The notes: generated by a model from the letters alone, not told the origin. DNA of 64,000 bases from an uncultured virus (IMG/VR IMGVR_UViG_3300027026_000009) (IMGVR_UViG_3300027026_000009); one strand, 5' to 3'; shown: positions 13,960-61,737, counted from the stretch's first letter. A program made the numbers and translations.

Positions 13960-13963
13960 CTAT

Positions 13964-16275: not shown

Positions 16276-16276
16276 G

Positions 16277-16821: not shown

Positions 16822-16822
16822 A

Positions 16823-21347: not shown

Positions 21348-22247
21348 ATGTCTAAAAAGCCCAAAAATAACTTACCGCAGTACAACGGAACAAAGGTCTT
21401 TCAAAAGGTTGCCCAAAGGGTAAAAGAAGAAAGGTTAAAGCGTGAAGGGCGTGATAAACTTCGATGGGGCGAGTGGAACGAGATACAAAAGCTTGTTAAG
21501 CAACGTAAATTAGCAGAACCTTTTTATGGTACAAGTTACAAGAAAGTCGATGTCGCACTTGTTGACAGCTATATTGAAAACAAGGTACTTGAACCTACGC
21601 AAATAGACTGTGGAAACCCATTTGCACTTAATATAGTAGATTACACTGGTGTCGAATGGTACGATATAGATAATGTCGTAAAGGAACTTCCAGATAACCT
21701 TAACATAAACGTAAATTTTGGGTCGCTAGGTCAGCTTGGAATCAAAAAGAGGGCTTTTTACGATTATAGCGATATAAGGGGAATGTTTGAAGAACTAAGG
21801 GAAATAGCCAATAACCAGTCTGGTGAGTTTTTCTTTGACGCTACAATACGAAAAATAGACCCAAATAAGCCCGATGACGATCTTTGTAATCTTTTTGTTG
21901 AATTTGCATTAACGCAAGGCGGACAAGCCGTTCCATCGCAAGGTTCTGACGCTGATTTTGTCGTTCCGCTTTCGGATGAAGAAGTGAAGCAAGCTAAAAA
22001 ACGTGCTGAACTTATTAAGAAGCTAAAGAAAAAGCGTAAACCAAAAAAAGCCCCAAAGACAGAACCGAAGCCAGAACCAAAACCTAAACCTAGAACGGAC
22101 AGTGATAAAACGGCAAGGTTAAAAGCTTTTGATTCAATCCAGAAAAATGCACTGAAATCTTTTGAATTGGGCTTGATCAGCAAAGCGGAATACCGCAAAC
22201 TGATAAAAGACGCACAACGAAATCTTGAAAAAGGCGGACAAATATAA
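21348..22247 (+). CDS. Basic Lys/Pro-rich protein ending in LEKGGQI
   Basis: ORF; carries the GG motif of the giant proteins; adjacent to the PolB-like gene. Confidence 0.7.
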   Translation: MSKKPKNNLPQYNGTKVFQKVAQRVKEERLKREGRDKLRWGEWNEIQKLVKQRKLAEPFYGTSYKKVDVALVDSYIENKVLEPTQIDCGNPFALNIVDYTGVEWYDIDNVVKELPDNLNINVNFGSLGQLGIKKRAFYDYSDIRGMFEELREIANNQSGEFFFDATIRKIDPNKPDDDLCNLFVEFALTQGGQAVPSQGSDADFVVPLSDEEVKQAKKRAELIKKLKKKRKPKKAPKTEPKPEPKPKPRTDSDKTARLKAFDSIQKNALKSFELGLISKAEYRKLIKDAQRNLEKGGQI

Positions 22248-24965: not shown

Positions 24966-25412
24966 CTATTTCTTTAATATCAAATATACGGCTGTTAAAG
25001 CCAAAGCACCAAATAGCCATTTATTGACTTGCGGTGAGGTCAAGTCCGTATCAAGTATCTTAGAAACCATATGTTCGCAGTTATTGTTAACTATATGGTA
25101 TTTTTTGTCCTTTAGGACATCCGCCATTTTACTGATGTCATCTTGGGTCAAGTCCGTGTTTTTTATTGATACGATTTCACGACCTTTTGCATACTTTTTA
25201 AAATCCTCGACAACTAGGTTGCCACCAAATACGTTCGATAAGCTTTGTTGGTTGTGGTAAAACAGAATTTCATCCCCGCTTCTTACGATAAAGCCATAAT
25301 GGTATATTATTGGCATTACGTCAGCCTTCAGCTTAACCAAATCACCAGTCTTTAGATTGGCTATGTGATTTTCTTTTACGGTAGATTTTAAAAGTTCTGT
25401 CTTTATGGTCAT
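24966..25412 (-). CDS. LRAT/HRASLS-like permuted papain-fold enzyme with C-terminal TM
   Basis: GDLV...YHYG...FYH...Y....NNCEH. Confidence 0.8.
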   Translation of the reverse strand: MTIKTELLKSTVKENHIANLKTGDLVKLKADVMPIIYHYGFIVRSGDEILFYHNQQSLSNVFGGNLVVEDFKKYAKGREIVSIKNTDLTQDDISKMADVLKDKKYHIVNNNCEHMVSKILDTDLTSPQVNKWLFGALALTAVYLILKK

Positions 25413-35804: not shown

Positions 35805-36262
35805 CTTACATCTGGTTTTAGTGACATGATACGATATACCTCATTTAATTCTGCCGAATCAAGTTCGCTGTTCATTCTTGCATTGAAATCCTCATTGTAA
35901 CGTGCGCTGTAATATGAAGCTACTTGGCTCAATGCAACCTTATCGTTCAAAGAGTTCATAACGCCAAAAATGGCATCTTCATCAGTTCCAAGTCCACTAA
36001 AAGCATTTCTTAAAGCTTCTGCATTTTCTTGTACTGACTTATCTTTTAGCTTTACAAAAGGCTTATCTGTATTTATTGCAGTATGATAGCTTCCCTTTAA
36101 GGCTTGGCTTACTTGACGGTTATCACTGTTGACGGCTTGTGCCTTTATGGTCGTTACCAAAGAATCATAAGTCTGTTTGCGCTTAATTGTCCTATATCCA
36201 AGGTATAGACCAGTTACACCTACCAGTGATCCAGATATAATCAAAATTTGCTTTCTAGTCAT
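35792..36262 (-). CDS. Membrane-anchored annexin-repeat protein
   Basis: AEALRNAFSGLGTDEDAIFGVM...Y..RY...F...MNSEL matches the annexin GxGT...E repeat. Confidence 0.75.
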   Translation of the reverse strand: MTRKQILIISGSLVGVTGLYLGYRTIKRKQTYDSLVTTIKAQAVNSDNRQVSQALKGSYHTAINTDKPFVKLKDKSVQENAEALRNAFSGLGTDEDAIFGVMNSLNDKVALSQVASYYSARYNEDFNARMNSELDSAELNEVYRIMSLKPDVRWLA

Positions 36263-36978: not shown

Positions 36979-37767
36979 TTAATTTAAAATCATTTTTTTG
37001 TTTTCAAAGTCACGGATAAATTTGTTTAAAATATCATACCGTTGTTTGTTCTGTGGTGACGGTGTGCCTTTAAAAACTTCTAAAAACGCTTGATAGGCTT
37101 CAATCCTTGGATAACCAAGAGAAAGGTATATCAATAATGCGTTTAAATCTGCTTCAATTTCGCTACTCTTTACCCTATTACGATAAAAGTGTGCGTATTC
37201 ATGCAGTAAAATTGCCATGCGCATAGGCACGGTATATTTATCAAATCCTTCTTTGGAAATCTGTATATGTCCGTTATATGCAGAGATCCTAGCGGGTGTT
37301 GCAAGTTTTTGACCAGTTCTATTGCTAGTTATATATGGAAGGTAGTCTATTAGGAATTTACCGTTCTGGCTCTTGTAAACCTCGTTTGTTTTAAGATAAC
37401 TAGAGTTAAACGCAAATCTTTGTGCTAGATCAACAAAATTTCTAACATCTACATCCCTTATGTCGCTGACATCAGTGCGCTTGACCAGTGGAAGTTTTTT
37501 AAGCTTTAGAACCTTAAAAGATGGGTCTTGCCCTTTTGAAAGGTTGCCGTTCGCTTCGTTATAGACTTCTACTATCGTGTACTTCCGAGACAACGGCATT
37601 CTAATAATGAACCTTTGCATACCATTTACCGTCATGTACCTATCGGTATAGACTGCTTTAGTTCTTTCTTCATCGTAAGCCTTTATGCGAATCCTTTGAG
37701 GTGAAGCTGTTCGTACAACCACCTCAATAATCAATTCTTCATAATTAGTCTTAACTCGAAGGTTCAT
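36979..37767 (-). CDS. Zincin metallopeptidase (candidate maturation protease)
   Basis: AILLHEYAH...EIEAD; lies within the virion gene block. Confidence 0.75.
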   Translation of the reverse strand: MNLRVKTNYEELIIEVVVRTASPQRIRIKAYDEERTKAVYTDRYMTVNGMQRFIIRMPLSRKYTIVEVYNEANGNLSKGQDPSFKVLKLKKLPLVKRTDVSDIRDVDVRNFVDLAQRFAFNSSYLKTNEVYKSQNGKFLIDYLPYITSNRTGQKLATPARISAYNGHIQISKEGFDKYTVPMRMAILLHEYAHFYRNRVKSSEIEADLNALLIYLSLGYPRIEAYQAFLEVFKGTPSPQNKQRYDILNKFIRDFENKKMILN

Positions 37768-43310: not shown

Positions 43311-43890
43311 TGTAGTTTAGTATAAAGTCAATTAGTAATTCCTTAGCTTTTAAGTGTTTCTTAAAAATGCTGTTTTCCCTTGGGTGCTTAAAATCCAATT
43401 TTAGTATCTTATTCTTATGTCTGGATATTGCCCAAGTATTCTTTTTTGTCAATTTATTAATATCTGCGACCGAAAAGTTTAAATAGGTAATCATTAAATG
43501 GATTACAGAACCACTCGCATAAATACGCTTGCCGTCACGGTTCTTGTCATCTAAAATTACTTGTCTGGGAAGGTCATAAAGACGTTCGACAATTTGAAAT
43601 ATCTTTTCGGTAACAATTTCAGATTTATCTATCCAGTTGAAGTCATTGTATAAATAATTGGTATCACACTGCAATAAATAAACCGCTTGGTCAATATTTT
43701 TATGGTCTATAAACTTCACGCATTTATCAAAAGCTTCTTTTACCGTTCCCTCAATTCCGCATCTGTGATCCAAATGTTCGGTAAGCCCTTTTTCAGACAA
43801 GTTGTAATAACTTAACATGAAAGAAACGGTATCAATGCCAAATTGCTTAATGTTTTCATTCAATACATTAAATAGTTTCTCATTGCTCAT
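43294..43890 (-). CDS. Protein with DnaA C-terminal-like HTH
   Basis: IFQIVERLY.L....IL...R...R.YA......L......S..DI...TKKN..AI. Confidence 0.5.
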   Translation of the reverse strand: MSNEKLFNVLNENIKQFGIDTVSFMLSYYNLSEKGLTEHLDHRCGIEGTVKEAFDKCVKFIDHKNIDQAVYLLQCDTNYLYNDFNWIDKSEIVTEKIFQIVERLYDLPRQVILDDKNRDGKRIYASGSVIHLMITYLNFSVADINKLTKKNTWAISRHKNKILKLDFKHPRENSIFKKHLKAKELLIDFILNYNGKEK

Positions 43891-44540
43891 TAGATATTGT
43901 ATTTTTTGAGAAACTCTTTGTTCGATATAATCCTATCAGCGACCTTTTCTGCAAATGCAATGTCGGATTGGTAATTATTGCCAAGATATAGACGGCTATT
44001 CTTTATAGCTTCCTTTATTTGCATAAACTTTTCGTAATCGTCTGGAATTAAATTACCTAAAACCTCACAGAATACACACCCTAGTACCACAGTTCTACTT
44101 GGATATGATGGTGTGTCGTTTCTGTAATTGCTTATTGGGAATAACTTAACTTTTGTGTTGGAAGCAAACTGGTTTGGGCGTATTCGCTTAAAATAATATT
44201 TAAGCTTTACGATGATCGGGTCGATGTCATCTGCTAATTGCTGTATCTTTCCCATAACATCCACTCGTGGTGATTTTGCCGTGTTGTAGAACCACTGCTC
44301 AAAGTTACGGTCAATCTTACTGTACATTAACAAAGCTTCTTCATTCTCGCTAAGTTGTATGTCGGTCAGCCTAACTATGGTGTCATTTACTTCTTGTATG
44401 GCTTTTTCGCCAGAAGGATAATTATAATCATCTTTAGCGAAATCAATAAAAACACTATCTAGGTAGTTGTTCTTCTGTATTAATTTCTGTTCGGCATAAG
44501 ATGGGTTTCCAAATTTTAGTGTGTCAATATTTAATTTCAT
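43890..44540 (-). CDS. Degenerate PAP2/haloperoxidase-fold phosphatase
   Basis: K.YFKRIRP, PSYPSRT, SRLYLGNNYQSD. Confidence 0.75.
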   Translation of the reverse strand: MKLNIDTLKFGNPSYAEQKLIQKNNYLDSVFIDFAKDDYNYPSGEKAIQEVNDTIVRLTDIQLSENEEALLMYSKIDRNFEQWFYNTAKSPRVDVMGKIQQLADDIDPIIVKLKYYFKRIRPNQFASNTKVKLFPISNYRNDTPSYPSRTVVLGCVFCEVLGNLIPDDYEKFMQIKEAIKNSRLYLGNNYQSDIAFAEKVADRIISNKEFLKKYNI

Positions 44541-44543
44541 TTT

Positions 44544-44786
44544 TTATTTGTACAAAGCATTCAACAAAGCACGATTTGTCCGAATGTTGTAAATCATACC
44601 TACAAAAATTAAAATACCAAGACCATAATTTACAATAGTAAAGTCATTGGGTAAATTAATCTTTCCGCCATCTGCCATAGTTTGTGATGGGTTGGGCGTA
44701 GGTGTAGGCTCTGGTATAGGCGTACCTTCTGGGGCAACTGGTGGAGTTGCGGGTGCGGGTGGTGTTGGGTTTATATTAGGATTCAT
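44544..44786 (-). CDS. Pro-rich single-TM protein with MADGG motif
   Basis: TM; MADGGKI. Confidence 0.65.
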   Translation of the reverse strand: MNPNINPTPPAPATPPVAPEGTPIPEPTPTPNPSQTMADGGKINLPNDFTIVNYGLGILIFVGMIYNIRTNRALLNALYK

Positions 44787-45942: not shown

Positions 45943-46311
45943 TTACGTGTTTAAATGTGACCAGTCCAGAGGTCGTGGCGCATTAAATCCAGTCCAATCA
46001 ACATTGGACAGATTTTGTCCAATCTGTTTTGTCGGGTCAAACTTGAATTTATCAAGGTCTGCTTTTATTTTATCCAAGTCCGCATCGCTAAAATCTACTG
46101 GTATGCCACCAGACTGCATGATTTTAAGGTCATTATATAAACGTTCTTGCTTCAGTAAACGTGCTTGACGTTCTTCTGGCGTTTCAGTCTCTTGGTATTC
46201 CAAAAGCGTCACGTCAACTTTTGAAGGTGCGCTTTTAGTTAGCTGTCTTATAAGAAATACACCACCAACCAAAAAACCGACACCAAGGGCTAATTTAGTT
46301 CCTTGTCTCAT
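45943..46311 (-). CDS. Single-TM membrane protein
   Basis: N-terminal TM. Confidence 0.65.
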   Translation of the reverse strand: MRQGTKLALGVGFLVGGVFLIRQLTKSAPSKVDVTLLEYQETETPEERQARLLKQERLYNDLKIMQSGGIPVDFSDADLDKIKADLDKFKFDPTKQIGQNLSNVDWTGFNAPRPLDWSHLNT

Positions 46312-49300
46312 ATGTTATGTTTTTTTCGCCATTTTTCATAGTCGTCTTTGTACTTTTTGAAGGCAGATGAAACGTGACCGTCTTTTTCTTTGTCATATAC
46401 CAAAGCTGTAAACTTAGTGTGCAAGCCTAGCAAGTTGTCTTTGTTCTTAACTATGTTAGGGCTGACCTCGTACCATTTTAATCGCTTTTTGTGCTTTGGT
46501 ACTACCTTATACATCTTACCAGTATAGTTAAAGCCAATATCATCATCATTGAGTTTACCGCCTTTCTTAAATTTTCTGAAATAAGCTTCAAAATCTTTTT
46601 GGCTAACCGTTGTTTCCTTACCTAGTTTATCACCTTTATCATCTAGTTCTATAATGGTGTACCTATTAGGCTTGGATTGGTGCGATACTATTCTAAATTC
46701 ACCGCCTTTAAACATACCTTCTTCACCTACAATATATTTAAAGGTTTGTGCGCCTTTTTCTTTTTTGTCCGTTGTAGGTACGACTTTAGACGCTTTTTTA
46801 TCTTCGGCTATGTTTTCCATGATTTCCTTTAATTCCTCGTCATATAAATCGCTCATGTCTGTATAGTCTTTTGAAAATTTAAGTCTAACATTAGACGGTT
46901 TATCTAAGAAATCAATACTTATTTTGGTTGGAATACCAAATTTATCCCTTTTTACCTTTAAGTATTTTTTAGACTTATTAACTATGACGATAGGCGCAAT
47001 ACTTTCATTCCTTTCTTCGGAATAATGTTTGGCAATCTTATTAAGATTTTCTTTTTGATTTTCTTTAAAAGCGGGAAGAAAGTCATTCTCTATTAATCCA
47101 GATACATCGTATAACTTACCGCCTTTTTCCTTTTTAGCGGTTTTTGATTTTACCTTGGATATTGGTTTTCCAAGTTTTGAATACTCACGCTTGGAAGGTA
47201 ATTTCATTCCGCCACGTTCAATTACTTCATAATCATTAGAGCCGTCCACGACCATATAACCATCAACGTCATCTTTTATTCTATTCAATGAGGATTTTCC
47301 TTGTTTAAAAAATGAATCTATAACTTCCATTGGTACGAACCTTCCGCTTTCTTTATAGCGGTTTAGCGCACGTCTCTTTATTTCTTCTTTCGGAACATTG
47401 TCAATAAATACAATGAATATTTTGTAGCCTAAAGACTTTAAAAGTTTGATTAGCTTCTCGTATTTTTCAACTGAAGTCATAGTTCCATCATAGATAATAT
47501 CGGTCTTACAAGGCAACCCAATAACTCTGTCGCTTAACAATACCCTAACTATGTCTTGCGTTTCCCTATGGGTAATTGGTGCGTTCCATCCTTGATATTC
47601 TGGCAATTTAGCCCTTATGTCATCGGCATCAATTTTTAAAATTTCATCCTTTAACAGATATGGTGCTGACTTTTTTAAGAATGTCGATTTACCGCTTGCG
47701 GGAGATCCGCCCATTAAGATAGCAATTGGTTGGTCATGCTCAATACACCTTAAACCGCTTTTTACATCGTTGATGATTTTTTTATGCAATTTTTGTCGCT
47801 GTGGTGTGTATTCGCCTTTAGTGCTATTGTAATACTTATCTTTTGTTTGATTAAGTGACAAATTATAATCAGTCAGCAACTGAATACTTTTTGTATCAGT
47901 CTTAGGTTTTCCATCCTTGTCAAGTATCTTGCGTTTCATTTCATCGCTCATTGATGAATTAACTATACCACCTTCTAAATAATAATTAGCCCAATCTACC
48001 TCGCCACGTTTCATTAGACCACCATTTTTTGCCTTTTTTATAGGTTTTATACGGTCGTCAAATTTTGGTGCTAATTCCTTAACTTTTTCATCTAAAGATA
48101 AGTAAATTACATCTGCGCTTGCACGTTCAAATTTTATATTATCTGGGTCAACATCTTCCACCATAAAATACACTCGTCCATTATCTATGTTTACTTTAAC
48201 AAGTGGCATTTCGTCAAATAGCATATTGTCGGTTTCCATTCGTAAAAGAACTTCGCCTTTTTTTATTGGAATGTATTTTAACTCTTTCTTATCAAAATCA
48301 TCTAGTGGATATAGATAGTAGTCGCCTACATATTTGCCGTTCAATCTATGCGCAAAAGAGCCTACTGATTTTTGACCAAGTTTACTTTTTCGGCTTTCCC
48401 ATATTTTTAAAGGTGATTTCGGGTTTTTTGTATCTACAAAAATAACCTCACCACCTTTTGCAAATGGCTTAACGTCATCGTCTGGTGCATCTTCAAAACC
48501 TTTTATTTGGTTAAGATTTACGCCTTTTTTTCTTAGACCAAATGGTTCATTATCAAGTCCGTAATCAAAAGTATATCCTTTCTTTTCTACTTTTTCTAAC
48601 AAAGCTTTGGTGTCATTATAGTCCACCATACCTTCGTCAAACTTCTCTAAATAATCTTCAATCATTGGTCTAATAGAAGAAGGTATGTTTTCGTAGTCCT
48701 CAAATAAATCACGCTGTAATTCACCGCCTTTTTCCATGTACCGTTTACGGTTCTTAGTTTTGCGTTTAGCGTAACGCACCTCGTAATCTTCATCGACATT
48801 AAGGTACTTGCGGTCACGCATCAATGCGGATTTTATGCGACCACCTTTTTTATAGATTGCCGTTTCTTTTCTTAATTCGTCTTTAAATTGATTTATAAAA
48901 TTCCATTTTTTAAATTCTTTGGATTGATTAGAAATGGCTGTAAAGTAATTATCAAGTGGTCTAGCTAGGCTATGGTAATTTACATCCGATAGGCTTTTTG
49001 CGTATTTTTTTAAATCTTCATCCGAAGTGTTTTCGTCTATTGTTTCACCATATTTAAGCATTCCTTCGTAATCAAAATCTTTTGAATATGTGTCACCTAG
49101 CTTGTATTTTTTTAGCGCACCGCCTTTTTCAGCTTTTTGATATAGTTCTAAAGATTTTACTAATTTAGATTGATTGCCTAAATTTATAAATGCTTTTATT
49201 TCTGCAAGATTTTCACCTTTGTATTTTCCTAATTTTATAATTTGTCGAAATTGATATATAAAATCTTTCGTTTGGGTTTTTCTAAACTTTATCTCTTTGT

Positions 49301-52300
49301 GTTTATTGATTTCACCACTATTATTTATCGTTTCAACTAATATGGAGTATGTTATTTTTTTATTTTCTTTTTCGGCTTTTTTTATTAGTGCTTTTAAATT
49401 TTCGTCTAATTTAAACATTAAAGCATTTTTTAGACTACCACCTTTTTCCATGTACCGTTTACGGTTCTTAGTTCTGCCTTTAGCGTAACGCACCTCGTAA
49501 TCTTCATCGACATTAAGGTACTTGCGGTCACGCATCAATGCGGATTTTGGTCGGTTGATCTTACCGCCCTTCTCAAAGAAACGAAATTCTTGCTCTTTCA
49601 TTCCCTTGTCTGACATCACCGACAATAAGCTTTGCTTTTTCTTAGGAAGCTTCAGCATATCTATCAGTTTCTTTTTTGCATCATAAAGACTGTCGGCATT
49701 GACTACATGACGTTTACCATCTATAAATCCAAAATAACGGTCTTTAACTTTGCCAACTACACCGCCTTCTTCTTTTTTGTCAACCGTAATCATGTCTTTT
49801 AGACGCTCACTGTCAGCAAAAAGTTCATCTACCTCTTTTTGTGCGGTCTTATCACCTTTGTCAGCCTTCTCAATTAATTTTGAAACTTTTAGATTGCCTT
49901 CTGGCGACAATGTTCCGTCCTTGTAAAATTCGTGCGAGATTTCATTTAACTTTTTTACACGTTCAGTCTTAACTTGAATCTCAACTGGCATACCGTTTTT
50001 TACAACAATGTAATGGTAAGCTGTATAACCGCCTAAAGGGTTTTTGTAATAGTCATCAAAATCTATAACCTCACCAAAAGTTCCGCTTTCTACGGTTTTA
50101 CGAATTTTTTCAAGGTCGTCACGGTTTGCAACCACTAATGTAGTACCGATTAAGTCCGTAAGCCCCTTTTTAGGGTCTGTCATTCGCTTATCAATAAGCT
50201 TTTTGATAATGGAATATGGCGTTTTGGTTCTGGCATAGATTTTAGCGTCCTTTGGTGCTTTTTTATCCATGTCACCTATAACGTCATCCATTACAACATC
50301 TAGCTTTTCTTTTGTATCTAAAAGCTTTTCAAATGACTTACGTAATTCGACTTGCTCAACTTGACCTTGGTTCTTTTTGTTCAAAGGATCCTTGTCGTCA
50401 ATATTGGCTCGACCGTCCTTATCATAGTCTTGGAAAACAGCTTTATATTTATCTTTATCAAAGGTTGTACCTTCGTTAACGATAAAGATTTCACGTCCAG
50501 TTTCACCGCCATATTTATAAATCTTACGCTTACAGTAGCCACCGTCAGCCATAAGCTTTTTTCTCTTTTTTTCTTTACGTGCTTTTAACTGCTCGTCAAT
50601 TTTTTTGTAACGTTCCCTTTTTTTACCTTTTGCATACCTTTCTTCATAGTCCTCGCTTTTGTTGACGTATTTGTGTTCTCTAGTATGTGCGCTTTTGGCA
50701 CTACCAGTCAACCCGCCTTTTTCGTACTTTCTACGCTGAATGGATTTGATTATTTTTTCAAAAGTTTCGGCTTCTTCGTTACTGTTAAATCGATAAATAC
50801 GTTCAACACCGCGATCCTTTACATAAACTATTTTATTTGTACCACGAAGGTCTTTTGCTACGTATTTTAGTTCTTTTAAATAGCCACGAATGCTTTTTTC
50901 TATATCTTCTCTAGTTGAATCTGATGTTGCGGGAAAATACTTGGTTAAGGCAAGCTTTCCGTCTATGGTTATTTTTAATAGCCCCGCATAGACTTTTTTA
51001 TCTGTCTTTTCAATTGTATTTTCAATTATTCTAGCTTCAACACCTTTTGGCACTTTGCCCCTTAAAATTCTAGGGCTTGCCTTTGGGCTTATTTTCTTAA
51101 AACGACCAGAAGCAACCGCTTCATCTACAAGTTTTTGTTGTTTGTCGCTTTTGAACCAAATACCATTATAAAGCTTATTGCCTTTTATAGTACCGTCATC
51201 ATACGTTTCAACAAAGTCAATGTTATAGTTTGGAATGTAAACAGCGTGTTTTGGTAATTTTCCGCCTTTTTCAAACAGCGATAATTGCTCGTCATTATTT
51301 TCAGACTGTTTTTTGATGGGTGTTTCGGAAATGTAAAGACCAGAAAGAAATTCAAAATCATCTGTGTAATCAATTACCTTACCGTCTTTGGTAACTACGC
51401 TTAGGATTTCGGTCGGGCGTAAATACTCGGCATCTAATCTTCCCCCTTTTTCAAACGGCAAAGCGGGTTCAATCTTTAATTCCTTGAAACTTTCTTTAGC
51501 CTTAGCAAATGCTTCAGCGACCTTTTCGGCTTCTATTTTTGTCAAACCTTCATTATTGACCAATTTCCAAGGAGTATCTTCATCCCATTTTACAACGACA
51601 TCATAAAGTGGTGCTTTTATCTTACCGCCTTTTTTAAGCTTTATTAGCTTATTGTAAGGTTCGACTGTTGTGACTGTTTGACCAGAATCATTTTTATATT
51701 CTACTTTTGCGCCAAGATTGGTAAGTTCCAATACTTTTCCTTTGTATTCTAGGTGAGATTCAAAATATGGAAATTTTAATTTTACTTCATCACCTACTTT
51801 AAAGTCCTTTAGTTTTCCGCCTTTTTCTAGCTTTGGTGCGCCCTTTGGATAATTAGGTGCTAAACGGTCGGTTCGGTTCTCACGGTTTTCGTAATATGTT
51901 CTTCCGCCTTTGGAAGCACCATATTGATTTTTCCAACCTTTTCTAGAAACCCTCTTGCCACGTGGCGAAGCTTTCCGACCCGCATCACGTGTCAAAGATT
52001 TTGTTCTACCGCTTGAACCAGTGTTAAAGCCTTTTAATTTTGGAAAATCCTTAACAAGTTGGCTTAAACTGTCCGCAACCTCTTGAACATCTTCACGTTC
52101 TTCAGCTTCTTCTTCTTTTTGATCTTTTGCACGTTCTTCAGCTTCAGCTTTAGTTTCATTTTCCTTTTTTATTTTTTCGGCACGTTCCTTTATTGTGTCG
52201 TCTGGATCTGGTTCGCCTTTGGGTGCTTTGGTGTCTGGTTTTGTTGCAGACCCTTTAACCTTAATAATAAGTTCGGGTCTTTTTACTTTTAGATTAGAAA

Positions 52301-52457
52301 TTACTTTGTCAAGACTTTGCTCGGCAATCTTCATTAATTTATCATCGTCTGATTCAAAATTATTTGTTTTTTCTTTTAGTTTTTTTAAGCCATTTTTTAG
52401 CTTAGATGGCAACTTATCTATGGCAATACTTTTATACTTTTTCTGCAATGTGTTCAT
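46308..52457 (-). CDS. 2049-aa polyvalent protein with RelA/SpoT-type synthetase and zeta-toxin kinase domains
   Basis: SAS motifs (RTK..YS..KK, DLIG, DY...P.GGY.AYH, VEIQVKT); zeta motifs (GGSPASGKST, IDADDIR, YDGT, R...R..ESGRFVP); about 20 xxGG motifs. Confidence 0.85.
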   Translation of the reverse strand: MNTLQKKYKSIAIDKLPSKLKNGLKKLKEKTNNFESDDDKLMKIAEQSLDKVISNLKVKRPELIIKVKGSATKPDTKAPKGEPDPDDTIKERAEKIKKENETKAEAEERAKDQKEEEAEEREDVQEVADSLSQLVKDFPKLKGFNTGSSGRTKSLTRDAGRKASPRGKRVSRKGWKNQYGASKGGRTYYENRENRTDRLAPNYPKGAPKLEKGGKLKDFKVGDEVKLKFPYFESHLEYKGKVLELTNLGAKVEYKNDSGQTVTTVEPYNKLIKLKKGGKIKAPLYDVVVKWDEDTPWKLVNNEGLTKIEAEKVAEAFAKAKESFKELKIEPALPFEKGGRLDAEYLRPTEILSVVTKDGKVIDYTDDFEFLSGLYISETPIKKQSENNDEQLSLFEKGGKLPKHAVYIPNYNIDFVETYDDGTIKGNKLYNGIWFKSDKQQKLVDEAVASGRFKKISPKASPRILRGKVPKGVEARIIENTIEKTDKKVYAGLLKITIDGKLALTKYFPATSDSTREDIEKSIRGYLKELKYVAKDLRGTNKIVYVKDRGVERIYRFNSNEEAETFEKIIKSIQRRKYEKGGLTGSAKSAHTREHKYVNKSEDYEERYAKGKKRERYKKIDEQLKARKEKKRKKLMADGGYCKRKIYKYGGETGREIFIVNEGTTFDKDKYKAVFQDYDKDGRANIDDKDPLNKKNQGQVEQVELRKSFEKLLDTKEKLDVVMDDVIGDMDKKAPKDAKIYARTKTPYSIIKKLIDKRMTDPKKGLTDLIGTTLVVANRDDLEKIRKTVESGTFGEVIDFDDYYKNPLGGYTAYHYIVVKNGMPVEIQVKTERVKKLNEISHEFYKDGTLSPEGNLKVSKLIEKADKGDKTAQKEVDELFADSERLKDMITVDKKEEGGVVGKVKDRYFGFIDGKRHVVNADSLYDAKKKLIDMLKLPKKKQSLLSVMSDKGMKEQEFRFFEKGGKINRPKSALMRDRKYLNVDEDYEVRYAKGRTKNRKRYMEKGGSLKNALMFKLDENLKALIKKAEKENKKITYSILVETINNSGEINKHKEIKFRKTQTKDFIYQFRQIIKLGKYKGENLAEIKAFINLGNQSKLVKSLELYQKAEKGGALKKYKLGDTYSKDFDYEGMLKYGETIDENTSDEDLKKYAKSLSDVNYHSLARPLDNYFTAISNQSKEFKKWNFINQFKDELRKETAIYKKGGRIKSALMRDRKYLNVDEDYEVRYAKRKTKNRKRYMEKGGELQRDLFEDYENIPSSIRPMIEDYLEKFDEGMVDYNDTKALLEKVEKKGYTFDYGLDNEPFGLRKKGVNLNQIKGFEDAPDDDVKPFAKGGEVIFVDTKNPKSPLKIWESRKSKLGQKSVGSFAHRLNGKYVGDYYLYPLDDFDKKELKYIPIKKGEVLLRMETDNMLFDEMPLVKVNIDNGRVYFMVEDVDPDNIKFERASADVIYLSLDEKVKELAPKFDDRIKPIKKAKNGGLMKRGEVDWANYYLEGGIVNSSMSDEMKRKILDKDGKPKTDTKSIQLLTDYNLSLNQTKDKYYNSTKGEYTPQRQKLHKKIINDVKSGLRCIEHDQPIAILMGGSPASGKSTFLKKSAPYLLKDEILKIDADDIRAKLPEYQGWNAPITHRETQDIVRVLLSDRVIGLPCKTDIIYDGTMTSVEKYEKLIKLLKSLGYKIFIVFIDNVPKEEIKRRALNRYKESGRFVPMEVIDSFFKQGKSSLNRIKDDVDGYMVVDGSNDYEVIERGGMKLPSKREYSKLGKPISKVKSKTAKKEKGGKLYDVSGLIENDFLPAFKENQKENLNKIAKHYSEERNESIAPIVIVNKSKKYLKVKRDKFGIPTKISIDFLDKPSNVRLKFSKDYTDMSDLYDEELKEIMENIAEDKKASKVVPTTDKKEKGAQTFKYIVGEEGMFKGGEFRIVSHQSKPNRYTIIELDDKGDKLGKETTVSQKDFEAYFRKFKKGGKLNDDDIGFNYTGKMYKVVPKHKKRLKWYEVSPNIVKNKDNLLGLHTKFTALVYDKEKDGHVSSAFKKYKDDYEKWRKKHNI
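48727..49548. repeat. 108-bp intragenic direct repeat (2 copies, 2 mismatches)
   Basis: 48727-48834 vs 49441-49548, encoding KSALMRDRKYLNVDEDYEVRYAK..TKNRKRYMEKG. Confidence 0.95.
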
Positions 52458-53548: not shown

Positions 53549-53874
53549 TACTTCTTTAGTATTACTTCGCTAACATCAAATTTGGTTTTGGTACAATCTT
53601 TAAGAAATCCTTCCATTTGCCTATTGGTCATTGAGTTACTAATCGCTATCCAACCCGCATCACGTGTAAACATTTCTATTTGATTATATTTACCTATTTC
53701 ATTTTCAAGAACTAGATCATACTTTACATGAATCAAAAAGCTTTCTGGCAATGCTTCATGTTCCAAAACCTCTATTTTATAAAAGTTAGCATCATTTTCG
53801 TTTTTGCTTATGTCGGCATAAAACTTAATTCGCTCGTTCGTCAATTTCTCTAAATCTTTTGGTGTCAAATTCAT
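53548..53874 (-). CDS. Hypothetical protein
   Basis: Operon ORF. Confidence 0.65.
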   Translation of the reverse strand: MNLTPKDLEKLTNERIKFYADISKNENDANFYKIEVLEHEALPESFLIHVKYDLVLENEIGKYNQIEMFTRDAGWIAISNSMTNRQMEGFLKDCTKTKFDVSEVILKK

Positions 53875-56716: not shown

Positions 56717-58127
56717 AATCTTCTATTATAAGTTCTGGGTCGTTTAGCACCTCGGTTAAATCAAAATTATTGTCGTTTTGACTGAAGCCGTCTTGATTTA
56801 TTAAATAAGTGTCGATATTTTCTTCTATATTTTCTTCTAAAATGTCAAACCTATCATTGAGTGCTTGTTTTTCTAAATTTTCTTCTATTTGGTTAAAAGT
56901 ATTCAAAAAGTTTTTAGGATCTGAATTTGAATCTCTTAATGGTCTTGCTTTGATAGTGTTTGGTTTAGTGTCTAGCTTAAAGGTGACTTCAACTATGTTA
57001 TTTATTATTTCAATTTTTACAATGTCTTTTTTTGATAAAAACAAATCTGGAATTACATCTTGAACTCTGTCATAAGACGACTTTAAGATATTGTTCCATA
57101 TTCTTTGAACAATTAATTTGTTACGTTTGGTAACATCATCTGTACCTTGACCGACTTGTTTCATTACAGTTTCCATAAATTTTTGTGAATCACGATTTAC
57201 CCAAAAAGGTAACTCATATTCGATAGTAGCGTCACCAAATTGAATAGCCCTTTGCATTATATTTTCTTGCGTTTCCAAAAAGTCAATGTACGCTTCAAAA
57301 TTGTCACCAGTATCTAAATCTTTAAGCCTTTGTGCTTGCGATTTTACAATTGCAATTTGACGTTCTAAACTGTCATTTTGTTCATTGTTTTGGTTTTCAC
57401 TTTCGCCCTCACCTTCGCCATCACCTTCAGCTTGACCTTCGCCATCGCCTTCGCCTTGACCTTCACCATCGCCTTCGCCTTGATCCTCACCTTCACCCTC
57501 GCCTTGACCTTCGCCTTCATCCTCACCTTCACCTTGACCTTCGCCTTCATCCTCACCTTCACCTTGACCTTCACCATCGCCTTCGCCTTCGCCTTGACCT
57601 TCACCCTCACCTTCGCCTTCGCCTTGACCTTCACCATCGCCTTCGCCTTCGCCTTGACCTTCGCCCTCGCCAATTTCATCATTGTCTGGGTCTTGCGATG
57701 AAGGACTACTACCAAATAAGTCATCTGCGTTCATGTCGCCATCAACGTTTTCCATTGCATTTGCTATCGCATCCTCGATTTCGTCTGGATTACCTTCAAT
57801 TTCTGCTATCCCGCTATCAATATCACCAAACAGTTCATTGTCGGCATCTATTTCGCCAATCGCTTCGGTATCTATGCCAGAGAAATCATTTTCAACCTTG
57901 TCAACCCTTTCAAATCTGTTATACATACCTAAAAGCCTTTTTCGGCTTTCTACCGTTTCTTCAATATCTGCATCTTCATCTAGGTCAAATATTTTGTCTA
58001 TTTCGGCACTGGTTAAATCCCTTACCTTATCCTTAAACTGACTTTCAGTAACAAGGTAGCTTTTAAAATCTGCATCAACTCCGCCAGTGACACTTAAAAA
58101 TCTCTCTAAAATTTCTTTATCTGTCAT
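56709..58127 (-). CDS. Acidic protein with long Gly-Glu repeat
   Basis: About 90-aa GEGQGEGE tract. Confidence 0.75.
   Translation of the reverse strand: MTDKEILERFLSVTGGVDADFKSYLVTESQFKDKVRDLTSAEIDKIFDLDEDADIEETVESRKRLLGMYNRFERVDKVENDFSGIDTEAIGEIDADNELFGDIDSGIAEIEGNPDEIEDAIANAMENVDGDMNADDLFGSSPSSQDPDNDEIGEGEGQGEGEGDGEGQGEGEGEGEGQGEGEGDGEGQGEGEDEGEGQGEGEDEGEGQGEGEGEDQGEGDGEGQGEGDGEGQAEGDGEGEGESENQNNEQNDSLERQIAIVKSQAQRLKDLDTGDNFEAYIDFLETQENIMQRAIQFGDATIEYELPFWVNRDSQKFMETVMKQVGQGTDDVTKRNKLIVQRIWNNILKSSYDRVQDVIPDLFLSKKDIVKIEIINNIVEVTFKLDTKPNTIKARPLRDSNSDPKNFLNTFNQIEENLEKQALNDRFDILEENIEENIDTYLINQDGFSQNDNNFDLTEVLNDPELIIEDYD
57404..57672. repeat. Low-complexity tandem repeat (24-30-bp units)
   Basis: Iterated CCTTGACCTTC(G/A)CC. 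Confidence 0.9.
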
Positions 58128-61100
58128 GTTGATTAGTTTTTAATTTACCACCAAGTTCAAACCTAAAGTCATCTAGTATAGGATTAAACATTGTTGCATT
58201 TTTTAACTTAACTTGATTACTGTTAAAAATTGCACAAGCCTTGGTAATGTTTTCTTTACCATTAATTATGTCGCTAGGGTTGTTTTCCATATAAAAATAG
58301 CCATCATATTGGGTGTTTAGGCGTATGTGTCTATTAAGTTTTGGATATTGCCTTATAAGTTGCCAAGCACGTATTTTAAATTTAGTCATGTTTCCTTCAA
58401 GAATAGGTGCTTTGATTTTGCTCGGTAGGAAATCATAAATGTTTGACGATGGATAAAATGTAGCAATATATCTTACGATTTCAGCAAAATCATATTGGTC
58501 GGTCTTAAAAGGTGTAAGATCAATAGGGTTCTTTATGTCCACAAAGGTTTCCATAAGATATTTGCCTTCAGCATTAGGGCTTTGGGCGTTTTGAGCAAAC
58601 CATAAGGCGTAACTTCTATTTTCGGCTAGATAAAAAACACCGTTTGAGGTTTGTCTATAACTGTACTTTCGTCTCGCTGATCCGTTATAATAAATCTGTG
58701 GCATACCGTTTTTATCGACCGCTTTTGAAACACCTTCATTATTTCCTTTTTTTATTGCACGTTCCCAATCACCAAACCACTTTTTAAATTTTTCAGTATA
58801 AATAACATCTTTGTCAAAAACATTATTACCGATAACTTGTACTCCGTCCTTTTCTTCATAAACTTCGCCTTTATGCAATCGTTCAAGAATACGGTAGATA
58901 ACCCCTATTTCACCGCCTTGTTGGGTAAAGTAAATCTTATATTTTTGTTGTTGAAGTTCTTTTAACTCATTTAGTAAATCCAGTCTCAACGACCCTTCGT
59001 ATTCTATTGGATCAAGCTGAAGTTGTATCTGTTTTTCTGCAATCAGTTCATTTATAAATTTAAGTGTGAGTTCATACTCATTCTTACTTAATTTAAAGGA
59101 TTCTGACATGGCGTTATTTATGTTAACCAACGCTTCGTTTGTTATTGTTGAATATGCGCTATCCTCGGCATCTGAATTAAATTCAATCGGTCTTGGGTCA
59201 CTTTTTATATAAAAATCTTTCTCGACATCAATTTCATCATCTGTTATAGTTACCTTTCTGTCTGAAGTAAGATCTTCTAGCGTATATTCATTGCCTTTCC
59301 AACTTGACTTTATAATGCTTTTAACTTTGTAAGTTTTATAAACGTTATCTACTGGTATGTACTCATAAAAAAGGTCATTTGCTTCCAGTCTATATTTAAT
59401 ACCGAAGTCCACCCAACTGTCAACATTATAAACTTTACCACTGTCCAGTTCCATTTTTAAAACATTGTTCTGGAAGTAAACACGCTCAACTTTATCATCA
59501 CCGCCAGCAAATTTTATTGTGTCATATTTTTTGGGTACAACCTTAGAAGGCATTAATTGATACGGCTGACCTTTTGTAAAATTTCTAGGCGAACCGTTCA
59601 CCAAATTAATTCCATCCCATGATCCGTCATTCTTGACATTAGTTACTTTGTATATTCTAGCACCTATTCTTACAACCTCAAACTGTTTAGGAGTATCTGT
59701 CTTTTGTGGTTCACTATTTGTTTCAGTTTCATTATTGTTTATGGTTTCATAATTAAGCGGTCTTAGAATCATAAAATCGTTACTGGCTCTATTCCAAGGT
59801 TGGCTGTTTGAAAAAGTTTCAGTTGAGTTTCCAGATTGAGCAGTAATTTCGACCGTTGTAGTTCTAGGCGTATTACCACTAAATTTTACGTCTGTTATAT
59901 TCCATAGATTTATAGTGCTGTATTCATAGCCGTTACGTTTCGCTAATAAAGCACCTCTTTTGATTAATGGTAAAACATATCTTACCCTACGTCCGTTTGT
60001 TTTAAAAGCATCGCCATCTTTTGCTCTTACGGTATATATAAACTCACCATTGATACGTTCAACTTTTTCAACTTTTAATTGTGTTTCATCTGTATCTAAA
60101 ATTATAGTGTCGTTTTTTCTTATTAGTTGTTGGTCTAATAAAGAAAAATTAGAAACCTCTTGCCAAAGCTTTAATTGCCCACTGACAATGTTAACAAAAA
60201 ATACTTTATCGCTCGATGTCTTAAAAACACGCCAAATATTTACTGTATCATTATCTAAAAAATAAATTTGCCCAATCGTAAAGTCTTTTTCATAAACTGT
60301 ACTTATATCTTTAAATACTTCATTTGTTTCTTCCGTATTTTGTGATTGTTCTGAAGTTGATGTTAAATTGTTTGAAACTAAACTATCGGGTGCAACGGTA
60401 TAATTTGGGTGATTTTTGAAAATATATTTTCTCTGTTCTGGTTTTATTTTAAGATAGTTTCCTTTTAAGAATTTTTCCCAATTAACCAGATTAGCCCAAT
60501 AGCTTTTCTTTATGTACTTAAAAAACCTATCAACCTTTTCGGCTTCCGACATTTGATAGTAATTGTCTATATTGATTTGTTTAGACGTATTTCTTTTTGA
60601 GCCGTCAACTGTTCTAAACCCCCAAACAACCCTTTCATTTTCCACATATATATAAGCGACCCTTCTTGGTTCGGTCAGTTCGTCAAGCTTTATAATTAAA
60701 GAGGACATAGTTTCAACAGCTTGCCTTTCGCCAAGAGAAATAAATCCCGCACACTGCAACATAGGATTAACCGTACTAAAAAGCTTTGGGTACTTTTCCA
60801 TGGTTTCATTTGCTGTTGTGCTTAAAACGGATGTAACGTCAATACACCAAAACCAATCTGACGGATTTGTGTCTGCTTTTATAAATTCTGTCCAGTCATA
60901 ATTTTTAGCGTAAGGGATGGTTTTTATAATAGTTTTTAAAAAAAACGACAATCCATTATTAACACTTCCAACTGGATTATAGAGTAAAAGTGCATCGTAA
61001 TTCCAATTACCGCTAATGTTATTCCATGAAATTACGACCGCTTTTTCTGCATTTACAGCAGTCCTCATTTCCATTTTATTGAAATTGTTACTTCTAATGG

Positions 61101-61737
61101 TTCTAAAAAATGCTAAAAACTCTTTATAGCTATTTATTTTAATGCTTATTTTTTCATTTTCAAAAACCATGTATTGAACCTTTGGATGGTAGCTTTGAAA
61201 AAGGTCTGCCACACCATCTTCGTTGTCTCGTATGATTTCATCAAGACGTGCGATAGGGTCATTCAATACTCCACCATCCGCAAAAGTAATGGTGTTTTTC
61301 TCATCTTTACTGTCTGGTTTATCTTCAGTATGCTCACACCCGCATTTGGACATTTCGTACAGTAAATGATCGGCATCTACCGTTTTGCCCCCAAACTCGT
61401 ATTCGCCTTGCTCAACCTCAATTTCAAAATCCTCTGGAATTTCACCACCATCCGCAAAAGATACACCGCCACCGCTTACGTTTATTGCGCTCAATATTTC
61501 ACGGTTGGTCATCATCTTGCCGTTAAAGCTTCTTTTTGTTTTGTCGCTTACAGCGTTTCTGGTTATAACAACTTCACCACCTTCCATTTCCAAGGGCTGA
61601 CCAGTGCTTTTGTTTATAGCCTTAATCCCGCCAGAAGAATGTCTTTTTCCCACTAACATTCCGCCCGCAGAACCGCTTTTGTGTACTATCTTTCCTTTTA
61701 AGTCTGGATTGTCTGGATTGAAATTACCTTTGCTCAT
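58117..61737 (-). CDS. 1206-aa polyvalent protein with C-terminal ART-PolyVal-like domain
   Basis: FKKWFGDWE...SKAVDKNG.P.IYYNGS...G.FY....YA...FVDIKNPIDL; FADGG twice, YEFGG, FELGG. Confidence 0.75.
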   Translation of the reverse strand: MSKGNFNPDNPDLKGKIVHKSGSAGGMLVGKRHSSGGIKAINKSTGQPLEMEGGEVVITRNAVSDKTKRSFNGKMMTNREILSAINVSGGGVSFADGGEIPEDFEIEVEQGEYEFGGKTVDADHLLYEMSKCGCEHTEDKPDSKDEKNTITFADGGVLNDPIARLDEIIRDNEDGVADLFQSYHPKVQYMVFENEKISIKINSYKEFLAFFRTIRSNNFNKMEMRTAVNAEKAVVISWNNISGNWNYDALLLYNPVGSVNNGLSFFLKTIIKTIPYAKNYDWTEFIKADTNPSDWFWCIDVTSVLSTTANETMEKYPKLFSTVNPMLQCAGFISLGERQAVETMSSLIIKLDELTEPRRVAYIYVENERVVWGFRTVDGSKRNTSKQINIDNYYQMSEAEKVDRFFKYIKKSYWANLVNWEKFLKGNYLKIKPEQRKYIFKNHPNYTVAPDSLVSNNLTSTSEQSQNTEETNEVFKDISTVYEKDFTIGQIYFLDNDTVNIWRVFKTSSDKVFFVNIVSGQLKLWQEVSNFSLLDQQLIRKNDTIILDTDETQLKVEKVERINGEFIYTVRAKDGDAFKTNGRRVRYVLPLIKRGALLAKRNGYEYSTINLWNITDVKFSGNTPRTTTVEITAQSGNSTETFSNSQPWNRASNDFMILRPLNYETINNNETETNSEPQKTDTPKQFEVVRIGARIYKVTNVKNDGSWDGINLVNGSPRNFTKGQPYQLMPSKVVPKKYDTIKFAGGDDKVERVYFQNNVLKMELDSGKVYNVDSWVDFGIKYRLEANDLFYEYIPVDNVYKTYKVKSIIKSSWKGNEYTLEDLTSDRKVTITDDEIDVEKDFYIKSDPRPIEFNSDAEDSAYSTITNEALVNINNAMSESFKLSKNEYELTLKFINELIAEKQIQLQLDPIEYEGSLRLDLLNELKELQQQKYKIYFTQQGGEIGVIYRILERLHKGEVYEEKDGVQVIGNNVFDKDVIYTEKFKKWFGDWERAIKKGNNEGVSKAVDKNGMPQIYYNGSARRKYSYRQTSNGVFYLAENRSYALWFAQNAQSPNAEGKYLMETFVDIKNPIDLTPFKTDQYDFAEIVRYIATFYPSSNIYDFLPSKIKAPILEGNMTKFKIRAWQLIRQYPKLNRHIRLNTQYDGYFYMENNPSDIINGKENITKACAIFNSNQVKLKNATMFNPILDDFRFELGGKLKTNQHDR

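Follow-up and report, generated by a model that had tools for sequence, protein, structure and literature searches.

Polyvalent proteins of the phage type were described by Iyer, Burroughs, Anand, de Souza and Aravind in 2017; the accessible part of their text names RelA/SpoT and predicts that zincin-like peptidases process such proteins (PMC5512222). The protein treated here (P0001) is encoded in the window, the whole 64,000-nt stretch of uncultured-virus DNA that was analysed. It resembles the polyvalent proteins in joining unrelated enzyme domains (RelA_SpoT and Zeta_toxin/AAA_33) in one chain. By Pfam it has no ART-PolyVal, LPD or MuF domain of its own, and no portal-linked domain was found, but among its homologues, whose domains are heavily shuffled, ART-PolyVal, RadC/JAB, NUDIX, Eco57I methylase and SNF2 domains occur. 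It differs in two ways: the candidate peptidase is not a domain of the chain but the product of its own core gene, and its modules are set apart by a Gly-Gly junction peptide, for which the classical proteins (ART-PolyVal, LPD, MuF_C) show 0–1 matches per at least 2,000 aa. The polyvalent architecture is already known; the junction peptide in such a protein is not described in that paper, where 'glycine', 'GG motif' and 'linker' do not occur in the accessible text (PMC5512222). We found no description of the peptide in the literature, that paper included.

Three groups of virion proteins that are cut at short peptides also bear comparison. Adenain and the ASFV protease pS273R cut virion core proteins and polyproteins at Gly-Gly sites, releasing small basic peptides among the products, and the adenain consensus has a hydrophobic residue two positions before GG. 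The present host is a bacterium, and in P0001 the hydrophobic residue lies three before GG with A/E and K between, which makes it P5 and not P4 if the cut follows GG. For T4 capsid-targeting and for head proteins of phiKZ and SPN3US, an N-terminal leader loads the cargo and a head protease, recognisably of the S77 type, cuts at a short consensus ending in Glu; neither such sites nor such an enzyme is seen here. The T5 tape measure pb2 is reported to be cut after R1127 to give pb2* and pb2C (PMC10038345), and lambda gpH to be cut in its glycine-rich C-terminal region to give gpH* and gpHC, by an enzyme that the accessible part of the source leaves unknown (PMC12617516). These are long virion proteins ejected into the host and cut beside a Gly-Gly peptide, whereas cutting of P0001 is predicted, and each has one cut against about a dozen junctions here. 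The residues directly after R1127 are AEGG, a likeness limited to four residues (−2.1 on the position matrix introduced below), and the lambda region contains GYATGGYVG (5.5) and FHFATGGFTG. Beyond this short peptide, no sequence relationship of P0001 to pb2C or gpHC was found.

P0001 occupies 46308..52457 on the minus strand, an open frame of 2,049 aa. Its sequence marks it as a polyvalent protein of phage, in which a conserved carrier at the N-terminus precedes variable cargo of at least 12 modules. Relatives come from IMG/VR viral contigs of 40–101 kb, one complete relative has tail-fibre genes and the window encodes a phage tail lysozyme domain. The chain holds 23 GG dipeptides where 9.4 are expected (mean 9.2, maximum 19 in 2,000 shuffles) and 15 KGG where 1.6 are expected (maximum 6 in 2,000 shuffles); 15 of the 20 KGG in all window ORFs of at least 80 aa sit in this protein. 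The earlier note had listed 19 pentapeptides, all of which were found in the order given. The four remaining GG are ASKGG at 184, NPLGG at 809, the Walker-A ILMGG at 1583 and MFKGG at 1918. Not all GG are junctions: those at 809, 1583 and 1749 are intradomain and about six more are weak variants of the motif. On a position matrix derived from homologues, 12 of the 23 score at least 5, one of the 12 being the kinase P-loop.

The carrier, aa 1–216 (51810..52457; this and all modules below on the minus strand), is closed by the first junction, LEKGG. According to a structural model and the invariant columns it is helical and then forms a basic beta segment (...GKRVSxxG...GGRTYYENRxNRxDR...). Matching sequences occur in 190 representative clusters and are always N-terminal, in proteins of 161–2,311 aa. 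A 64-aa beta module follows between LEKGG and LKKGG (aa 215–278, 51624..51815). The RelA/SpoT-type nucleotidyltransferase module (aa 651–899, 49761..50507) stands between YKYGG and KEEGG. Its Pfam RelA_SpoT match covers aa 743–846 (E 3.6e-14, 53.4 bits against a gathering score of 27), flanked by GG 650 and GG 898. The nearest solved relative, the E. coli long RelA, is found only at E 5.8e-5; in the alignment EIQVKT pairs with EIQIRT of RelA, a stretch we take to be catalytic. By score and conserved stretch the module is a RelA/SpoT-homologue synthetase domain, of predicted activity.

A zeta/PNK-type P-loop kinase module (aa 1498–1780, 47118..47966) lies between YLEGG and KEKGG. Pfam Zeta_toxin matches aa 1571–1741 (E 2e-25, 89.8 bits, gathering score 22.3), with GG 1496 and GG 1779 on either side and the Walker A sequence GGSPASGKST at aa 1583–1592; NCBIfam gives weak adenylate kinase matches. 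Both domain types had been proposed in the earlier note and Pfam bears them out. The note had also taken it as established that zeta kinases block peptidoglycan synthesis. The P-loop/Zeta_toxin domain stands, but such a block is not established for this module because, among solved relatives, the polynucleotide kinase Pnkp1 (2.5e-7) and PezT (3e-7) are equally close to it. Three basic mini-modules were read from the sequence: one of about 42 aa with GG at both ends (aa 966–1007, 49437..49562), a near-identical copy (aa 1207–1245, 48723–48839) and a diverged copy (aa 583–640, about 50538–50711). The module at aa 1246–1336 (48450..48722) matches phrog_37263 and also a gene of 175 aa that stands by itself in Cellulophaga phages phi17:2 and phi4:1. 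Apart from the two enzymes and three mini-modules, the modules are small domains without a recognised family.

Across the family the junction is a 7-residue peptide, [YFM]-[AE]-x-G-G-x-[VILT]. Among 2,089 GG sites in 101 proteins, Y/F/M at −3 is enriched 4–6 fold and A at −2 6 fold, with V/L/I enriched at +2. In an independent set of 146 relatives, found solely through the N-terminal module, 990 strong sites occur in 129,060 aa (7.7 per 1,000 aa; 0.04 after shuffling), the median spacing is 70 aa and every one of the 104 proteins of at least 600 aa has at least one strong site. The aromatic residue or Met at −3 and the aliphatic residue at +2 are retained among relatives of 23–60% identity. 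The motif also falls at borders. Of 306 internal ends of BLAST blocks, 61% have a GG no more than 10 aa away, as against 21% for random placement of the sites, and 0 of 2,000 random placements reached the observed value. In 70 homologues of the zeta module, the motif stands at the start in 51 and 11–30 aa past the end in 40. In an AlphaFold model of aa 1–420, GG 213, 277 and 338 are in segments with pLDDT below 50 and GG 398 is in a block of pLDDT 51–52. The earlier proposal that a Gly-Gly motif punctuates the chain at module borders is supported, and the outcome that the note said would count against it, loss of the motif from the borders in homologues, did not appear: the block ends and the zeta-module flanks keep it. 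The motif is conserved as protein across a whole uncultured phage lineage. It is probably the place at which the string is cut or otherwise handled.

Our preferred reading, held tentatively and at somewhat less than an even chance, is that the junction is a processing signal: a string borne by its carrier would be cut into effectors and basic peptides, with P0103 (described below) the likeliest enzyme encoded in the window. The effectors would be made as a single chain and probably loaded in the particle through the N-terminal carrier. Cutting at or beside the junctions, during particle maturation or after delivery, would yield separate effectors and basic peptides, and the repeated motif-coding DNA would double as a breakpoint for module gain and loss. 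We count in favour of processing the motif statistics, the border positions, selection at the protein level, the tags on separately encoded proteins, the module exchange, the core gene of P0103 and the precedents in polyvalent proteins and tape measures. Scans near the gene, across the window and in the covered parts of the complete relative recognised no capsid, portal, terminase or head protease gene, so the proposed carriage in the virion is argued solely from analogy and from co-orientation with the tail-fibre genes of a relative.

The likeliest window-encoded cutter would be P0103 (36979..37767, minus strand), a core protein of 262 aa. Its N-terminal part is a beta-sandwich, and its C-terminal domain carries HExxH and has a tentatively M48-like fold. 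A protease of the host, or some other that was not recognised, would be nearly as likely. H189, E190, H193 and E223 do not vary among 37 sequences, and we infer that E223 is the third ligand. The model has a pLDDT of 90.7. Its C-terminal half superposes on BepA, an M48 protease (Z 7.9, rmsd 4.2, 120 residues aligned), a score of the kind that, by the tool's own account, models without clear relatives often reach, and P0103 matches 3c37 with Z 6.7. No match to the model came from Foldseek with E up to 0.001, and none to the protein from Pfam or NCBIfam; its language-model neighbours, metallopeptidase clusters (0.80–0.85), offer no more than a lead. The gene occurs in 5/5, 16/24 and 6/6 (at least 90% complete) related records. 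In a second record set it occurs in 6 of 44; all records there with at least two strong sites in a protein have it, and the sixth P0103 record has one strong site, as do several records that lack P0103. This co-occurrence is confounded, because the sampled motif phages are one lineage and any core gene of one lineage would co-occur. The enzyme at 36979, which the earlier note had suggested for co-expression, is, as an HExxH core gene, a reasonable candidate.

An unlikely alternative, though the strongest of the rivals, is that the chain stays intact and the peptide is a docking or address tag bound by a particle component (capsid interior, portal or tail lumen) or by the beta-sandwich of P0103. 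Targeting peptides attach encapsulin cargo, and many copies would give multivalent attachment of the cargo string. The distribution of the motif outside P0001 agrees with such a tag, since it occurs at extreme C-termini and near N-termini of separately encoded proteins (3–11 aa from C-termini or 10–15 aa from N-termini). Three further window proteins have it. In the first, of 1,206 aa (58117..61737, minus strand), the sites at aa 97 and 155 are strong and those at roughly aa 53 and 116 weaker, and FRFELGGKLKT lies 11 residues from the C-terminus; the syntenic proteins of related phages combine a C-terminal tag with zeta and ART-PolyVal domains. The second, of 80 aa (44544..44786, minus strand), has a Pro/Ala/Thr-rich leader, then QTMADGG and then a single hydrophobic helix, and small proteins resembling it are encoded at 20 related loci. 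The third, of 299 aa and no known family (21348..22247, plus strand), ends in ...NLEKGGQI. Trimming seems pointless at C-terminal tags such as KGGQI and KGGKI, with 2–3 residues after them, and these look more like a docking tag. Both flanks of GG are conserved, hydrophobic at −3 and +2, and conservation out to +2 past GG is as compatible with binding of the peptide as with its cutting; tandem doublets also occur, 6 aa apart. Against a tag, one or two copies would suffice, yet nearly every border has one at the median spacing given above. The 40-aa basic mini-modules with tags on both sides are easier to understand as released peptides, and no binding partner was identified.

Rather less likely still, the junction might be a structural seam and recombination joint only, a flexible Gly-Gly hinge whose flanks cap the domains; no protein would read the peptide, and the motif would be kept because repeated coding microhomology allows modules to be shuffled. 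The relative P0002, 93% identical to P0001, differs from it by two indels of 64 and 106 aa with breakpoints exactly at GG, the 64-aa beta module being missing from P0002. This bears out the earlier idea that modules are gained and lost at the motif, and it is what a seam would produce. So are block ends at the motif, the poorly ordered linkers of the model and the roughly 10 nt (AAAAAGGCGG) common to two junctions of 46308..52457. But 310 strong sites are encoded by 170 distinct 12-nt words, so DNA is not the conserved thing; among the sites of 46308..52457, the motif codons make no GGAGG. The residues kept at −3 and +2 across diverged relatives also speak against a seam. The peptide is found at protein ends and after the leader of a small hydrophobic protein, where nothing is joined, and classical polyvalent proteins shuffle their modules with almost no such sites.

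The earlier note had pointed to di-glycine cleavage by adenain and the ASFV protease and had named the enzyme at 24966 for co-expression; the corresponding rival is processing after GG by a papain-fold cysteine protease, PPPDE/DeSI-like or adenain-like. PPPDE/DeSI enzymes, adenain and the ASFV protease cut after Gly-Gly. The window candidate is a 148-aa PPPDE/LRAT-like protein (24966..25412, minus strand) with a His ... NCEH arrangement, which scores above the Pfam cut-off for Peptidase_C97/PPPDE (31.4 bits, cut-off 29.2; LRAT 21.7 bits). Its NCEH box and C-terminal hydrophobic membrane anchor point to the LRAT/PLAAT acyltransferases, of which we take both to be typical. This route is very improbable and the enzyme a poor candidate because its gene is in 1/5 related records (1/3 of those at least 90% complete), all of which carry the motif; that complete genomes with the motif lack it speaks against a general role. 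Nor is the adenain/ASFV-type scheme supported: the hydrophobic residue is one position further from GG, and Pfam found no clan CE family (Peptidase_C5, C48, C57, C63) among the 95 window ORFs (E limits of 0.001 for the 46 on the minus strand and 0.01 for the remaining 49), a scan that a very divergent member could escape. P0103 is the better candidate for reading or cutting the motif.

The processing reading can be extended, with a chance that we put on the low side, to a 7-residue 'junction code' at every module border and at the ends of unrelated late proteins, read by a dedicated core metallopeptidase that would dice polyproteins into effectors and small basic peptides. Among 50,697 cultured phage records, T5 and lambda included, no relative of P0103 was found; T5 and lambda, in whose tape measures the nearest motif-like sites occur, must therefore use something else, which weakens P0103 as a universal reader. 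If true, the junction code would be the bacterial-virus counterpart of the maturation of adenovirus and ASFV polyproteins, and the same signal could account for the cleavage of the tape measures of T5 and lambda, which has long lacked an explanation.

The ORF at 46308..52457 (−) is open for 2,049 aa and encodes the protein P0001, in which Pfam places RelA_SpoT at aa 743–846 (E 3.6e-14) and Zeta_toxin at aa 1571–1741 (E 2e-25), both above the gathering score. AAA_33 covers the same stretch as Zeta_toxin, and PHROGs matches an ATPase family across the kinase and phrog_37263 across aa 1241–1310. Among solved structures the RelA/SpoT module comes closest to E. coli RelA (E 5.8e-5), in an alignment that includes the EIQVKT stretch; sequence alone does not identify its product. 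For the kinase module, the polynucleotide kinase Pnkp1 (2.5e-7) and PezT (3e-7) are equally near relatives, so that ‘Zeta toxin’ serves here as a family label and not as a substrate assignment.

P0001 contains 23 GG dipeptides against 9.4 expected (2,000 shuffles gave a mean of 9.2 and a maximum of 19) and 15 KGG against 1.6 expected (at most 6 in shuffles); counted across every window ORF of at least 80 aa, the KGG total is 20, including these 15. The earlier note had listed 19 GG-ending pentapeptides and named pairs of them on either side of both enzyme domains; all 19 are found, the pairs lie as described, and the observation is confirmed and extended by what follows. Three GG are not part of the 7-residue module-border peptide that we term the junction: those at aa 809 (within the RelA/SpoT domain), 1583 (the kinase P-loop) and 1749 (conserved, within the kinase module).

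A search of 5.8 billion proteins yielded 100 relatives of P0001, of 1,126–3,586 aa, and in nearly all of them the GG number is 2–3 times that expected. The five SNF2-containing relatives lack the excess; a viral contig was sought for the SNF2-type homologue P0058 as a negative control and none was found. From 2,089 GG sites we derived the consensus [YFM]-[AE]-x-G-G-x-[VILT], with Y, F or M enriched 4–6 fold at position −3, A enriched 6 fold at −2, K commonest at −1 and V, L or I enriched 2–4 fold at +2. A position matrix was trained on the relatives, leaving out P0001 and its close relative P0002, and sites scoring high on it are termed strong. The independent test set comprised 146 proteins that a profile-free scan of 1.84 billion representatives retrieved solely by their homology with residues 1–216 of P0001. 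Its 129,060 aa hold 990 strong sites, or 7.7 per 1,000 against 0.04 per 1,000 when shuffled, with at least one in each of the 104 proteins of at least 600 aa and a median spacing of 70 aa. In the window and 24 related loci, 310 strong sites are encoded by 170 different 12-nt words, so the constraint acts on protein and not on DNA. A Shine-Dalgarno-like pause or internal start is ruled out, the P0001 gene having no GGAGG because the first Gly codon of its 23 GG is never GGA (GGC 16, GGT 6, GGG 1, GGA 0).

The junctions coincide with module borders. The BLAST blocks shared by P0001 and its relatives have 306 internal ends, and a GG is no more than 10 aa away from 61% of them, against 21% for randomly placed sites (0 of 2,000 placements reach 61%), a descriptive result since block ends are mutually dependent. 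The motif lies within −4 to +9 aa of the kinase module start in 51 of 70 homologues and 11–30 aa after its end in 40 of 70, while 20 of 70 have no downstream motif. An AlphaFold model of aa 1–420 (26-row alignment, mean pLDDT 65) consists of small folded units with segments of pLDDT < 50 between them; GG 213, 277 and 338 sit in such segments, and GG 398 in a block averaging 51–52.

P0001 and its relatives belong to the polyvalent-protein class of Iyer et al. (2017), whose main text names RelA/SpoT within these proteins and proposes that zincin-like peptidases process them. The first 216 residues of P0001 are a conserved carrier, for which AlphaFold predicts helices and then a short basic beta segment; 190 representative clusters matched it, always at the N-terminus, in proteins ranging from 161 to 2,311 aa, and a junction follows it directly in 126 of 146 proteins. 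Domains found in relatives include ART-PolyVal, RadC/JAB, NUDIX, GNAT, Eco57I methylase, SNF2 and several DUFs. Classical polyvalent proteins of other phages (ART-PolyVal with LPD, MuF_C or InPase) differ in having 0–1 strong sites in > 2,000 aa, which makes the junction peptide an addition specific to this lineage within an already known kind of protein. The words ‘glycine’, ‘GG motif’ and ‘linker’ do not occur in the main text of Iyer et al. (2017), whose supplement may include alignments with the motif; a literature search for YAKGG returned no phage paper, and among the top-ranked titles and abstract openings on polyvalent proteins, cargo/crAss and virion proteolysis the peptide is not described. 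The conserved Gly-Gly junction peptide that joins the modules of this polyvalent protein appears to be undescribed. Among 50,697 cultured phage records there was no match for the DNA of the ORF, for the 1,206-aa protein or for a 472-aa protein, and P0001 itself matched only via its kinase module and one small module.

The motif is not confined to P0001. Matrix matches occur in a 1,206-aa protein (58117..61737), close to its N-terminus and again 11 residues before its end, in an 80-aa protein (44544..44786), between a Pro/Ala/Thr-rich leader and a single hydrophobic helix, and in the last eight residues of a 299-aa protein (21348..22247). In the 24 related viral loci, pieces encoded as separate genes carry motifs 10–15 aa after their starts and 3–11 aa before their ends, and some motifs form tandem doublets with a 6-aa spacing (GGMMADGG). 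Gene order is conserved: a large tagged protein, a variable gene, an AAA_5 (MoxR-type) ATPase, a DUF7192 protein, one to four tagged polyvalent genes, small genes, a small tagged hydrophobic protein, a protein with a PAP2 phosphatase signature, four further conserved genes and then an HExxH protein. The AAA_5 (MoxR/CobS-like) ATPase at 55385–56716 (−) and the DUF7192 protein at 53871–55385 (−) lie between two large tagged proteins, a placement seen in 18–19 of 25 sources (24 loci and the window), and may aid in folding, unfolding or loading cargo strings.

With PHROGs and Pfam, no capsid, portal, terminase or head protease was recognised among 95 window ORFs, nor any of these with PHROGs in 60 ORFs of a 100%-complete 84.7-kb relative, whose 15001–38999 were covered by motif and synteny scans only; matches returned were only tail-fibre, lysozyme, RecT, glycosyl- and methyltransferase. 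Virion packaging of P0001 is for this reason an analogy and not a result. Collagen-like and T4-type tail-fibre genes lie further along the same strand of the complete relative. The 216-aa product of 43890..44540 (−), a protein conserved in 19 related loci, was rejected as a head protease on account of its PAP2/class A acid phosphatase signature (K..RP, PSGH, SR....H...D); it has a weak NCBIfam PhoC match and no Pfam match at E up to 0.001. A phosphatase acting on lipids or sugar phosphates would not be expected in this gene block.

Elsewhere in the window, 42270–43310 (−) encodes a conserved 346-aa protein that includes a low-complexity, Pro-rich stretch and ends in an AT-hook-like RGRPRKK, and the adjacent 41444–42268 has a weak PHROG match to the nuclease half of large terminase (E 1.9e-4). 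A wall-active trio at 19260–20855 (+) comprises Phage_lysozyme2 (E 1.5e-33), a PG_binding_1 protein and a DUF2272/CHAP-like protein; 35093–35569 (−) encodes another PG_binding_1 protein. A glycosyltransferase cluster (GT2 twice, GT1/GT4) with a hexapeptide acyltransferase occupies 13309–18169 (+), and several genes for glycosyl- and methyltransferases are likewise found in the complete relative; a role in modifying DNA or the surface is possible. Pfam matches unusual for a phage are a CAP/cysteine-rich secretory domain at 2363–2866 (+) (2.7e-7), LEA_2 at 32939–33523 (−) (5.3e-7) and an annexin repeat at 35792–36262 (−) (7.2e-6). Low GC and a CarboxypepD_reg-like domain hint, tentatively, at hosts among the Bacteroidota. 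IMG/VR lists inverted terminal repeats for four related records (G011, G023, G024 and G051; loci L011, L024, L025 and L072), which would fit protein-primed replication, without an identified polymerase.

As to the role of the junction peptide, we tentatively favour a processing signal. Two phage tape-measure proteins offer a suggestive lead that cutting may happen at such peptides. T5 pb2 is cut after R1127 (Linares et al. 2023), where the T5 record reads ...VPR then AEGGMMYP; the site has A-E-G-G as in the motif, yet scores −2.1 on the matrix. Lambda gpH is cut in its glycine-rich C-terminal region, with site and catalysis called unknown in 2025 (PMC12617516); there GYATGGYVG scores 5.5 and FHFATGGFTG 2.0, the chance expectation for a match of the former type being about 0.03 in 853 aa, from the shuffled rate of the independent set. 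Neither pb2 nor gpH was found with a profile built on the N-terminal domain conserved in the 1,206-aa protein, and a resemblance noted by eye (GE-x-V-x-T, then F/Y-A-x-GG) had no statistical support in that search.

A reader, that is, a protein that would cut or bind the motif, may be P0103, the HExxH protein at 36979..37767 (−) (262 aa). It was present in 5 of 5 related records and then in 16 of 24, including all 6 that are at least 90% complete; the 8 without it are at most 50% complete. It has more than 950 relatives, and H189, E190, H193 and E223 are invariant in 37 sequences. The model (pLDDT 90.7) combines a beta-sandwich at the N-terminus with a helical domain at the C-terminus; the helical domain superposes on the M48 protease BepA (Z 7.9, rmsd 4.2 over 120 residues) and on a putative Zn peptidase (Z 6.7). 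Foldseek on the model gave no match at E up to 0.001, and the language-model neighbours are metallopeptidase clusters at 0.80–0.85, under the level at which the tool counts a match as more than a lead. In a second set of 44 records reached via the ART-PolyVal domain, P0103 occurs in 6: every record with at least 2 strong sites (L036, L072, L074, L084, L101) and L087, which has 1, as do several records without P0103. This co-occurrence fits a reader enzyme and would be expected just as much of every core gene in a single lineage. A DNA-pattern search for the GGMMADGG doublet returned 10 stretches, mostly on contigs already sampled; P0103 was found in 0 of 5 new fragments (7–47% complete), an uninformative outcome. 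No P0103 relative was found in the 50,697 cultured phage records, nor in T5 and lambda, and the tape-measure comparison argues against P0103 as the only possible enzyme. JAB/JAMM enzymes cut after Gly-Gly in ubiquitin-like systems. Some tagged polyvalent relatives (P0090, P0101) carry a RadC-like JAB domain within the chain, a possible in-cis reader.

That the peptide is instead a docking tag, recognised and left uncut, we think unlikely. A complex prediction of P0103 with aa 1312–1352 of P0001 (score 0.00, mark 0.32, run without controls) speaks neither for nor against binding.

Slightly less likely still is a seam or recombination joint that has no reader. Module exchange at the junctions bears on this reading and on the favoured one alike. 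P0002 is 93–98% identical to P0001 across shared blocks, and a 64-aa module (aa 215–278) and a 106-aa module (aa 1008–1113) are each present in one and missing from the other, with breakpoints exactly at GG; a third difference, from GG 1779 to GG 1966, is more complex. The module at aa 1246–1336 exists as a gene on its own in Cellulophaga phages phi17:2 and phi4:1, and a basic mini-module of ~40 aa occurs in three copies in P0001, each with GG on both sides. The earlier note had placed the motif at module borders and had inferred that modules are gained and lost there; the kinase flanks and block ends bear out the first, the two exact indels the second. A joint without a reader has also to accommodate motifs close to the ends of separately encoded pieces.

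Cutting by a papain-fold protease, proposed at the outset for the product of 24966..25412 (−), is very improbable: this 148-aa protein passes the Pfam cut-off for PPPDE and has a papain fold, a His ... NCEH box and a C-terminal hydrophobic anchor, but resembles an LRAT/PLAAT-type acyltransferase or phospholipase more closely than it does a peptidase, and as a general reader it is rejected, occurring in only 1 of 5 related records, which leaves P0103 the better candidate. The four readings together leave part of the probability unassigned.

Phages are thought to fire polyvalent proteins into the cell as their first weapons, and a lineage-wide junction peptide is a concrete, testable handle on how a dozen unrelated activities are packed, delivered and activated. 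Were it only a seam, it would still show that phage effector modules are swapped at fixed breakpoints. If, as we favour, it is a cutting signal, sequence alone would reveal the module borders of thousands of proteins from uncultured phages, any module could be tested by itself, and there would be a lead on the enzyme and signal behind T5 and lambda tape-measure cleavage.
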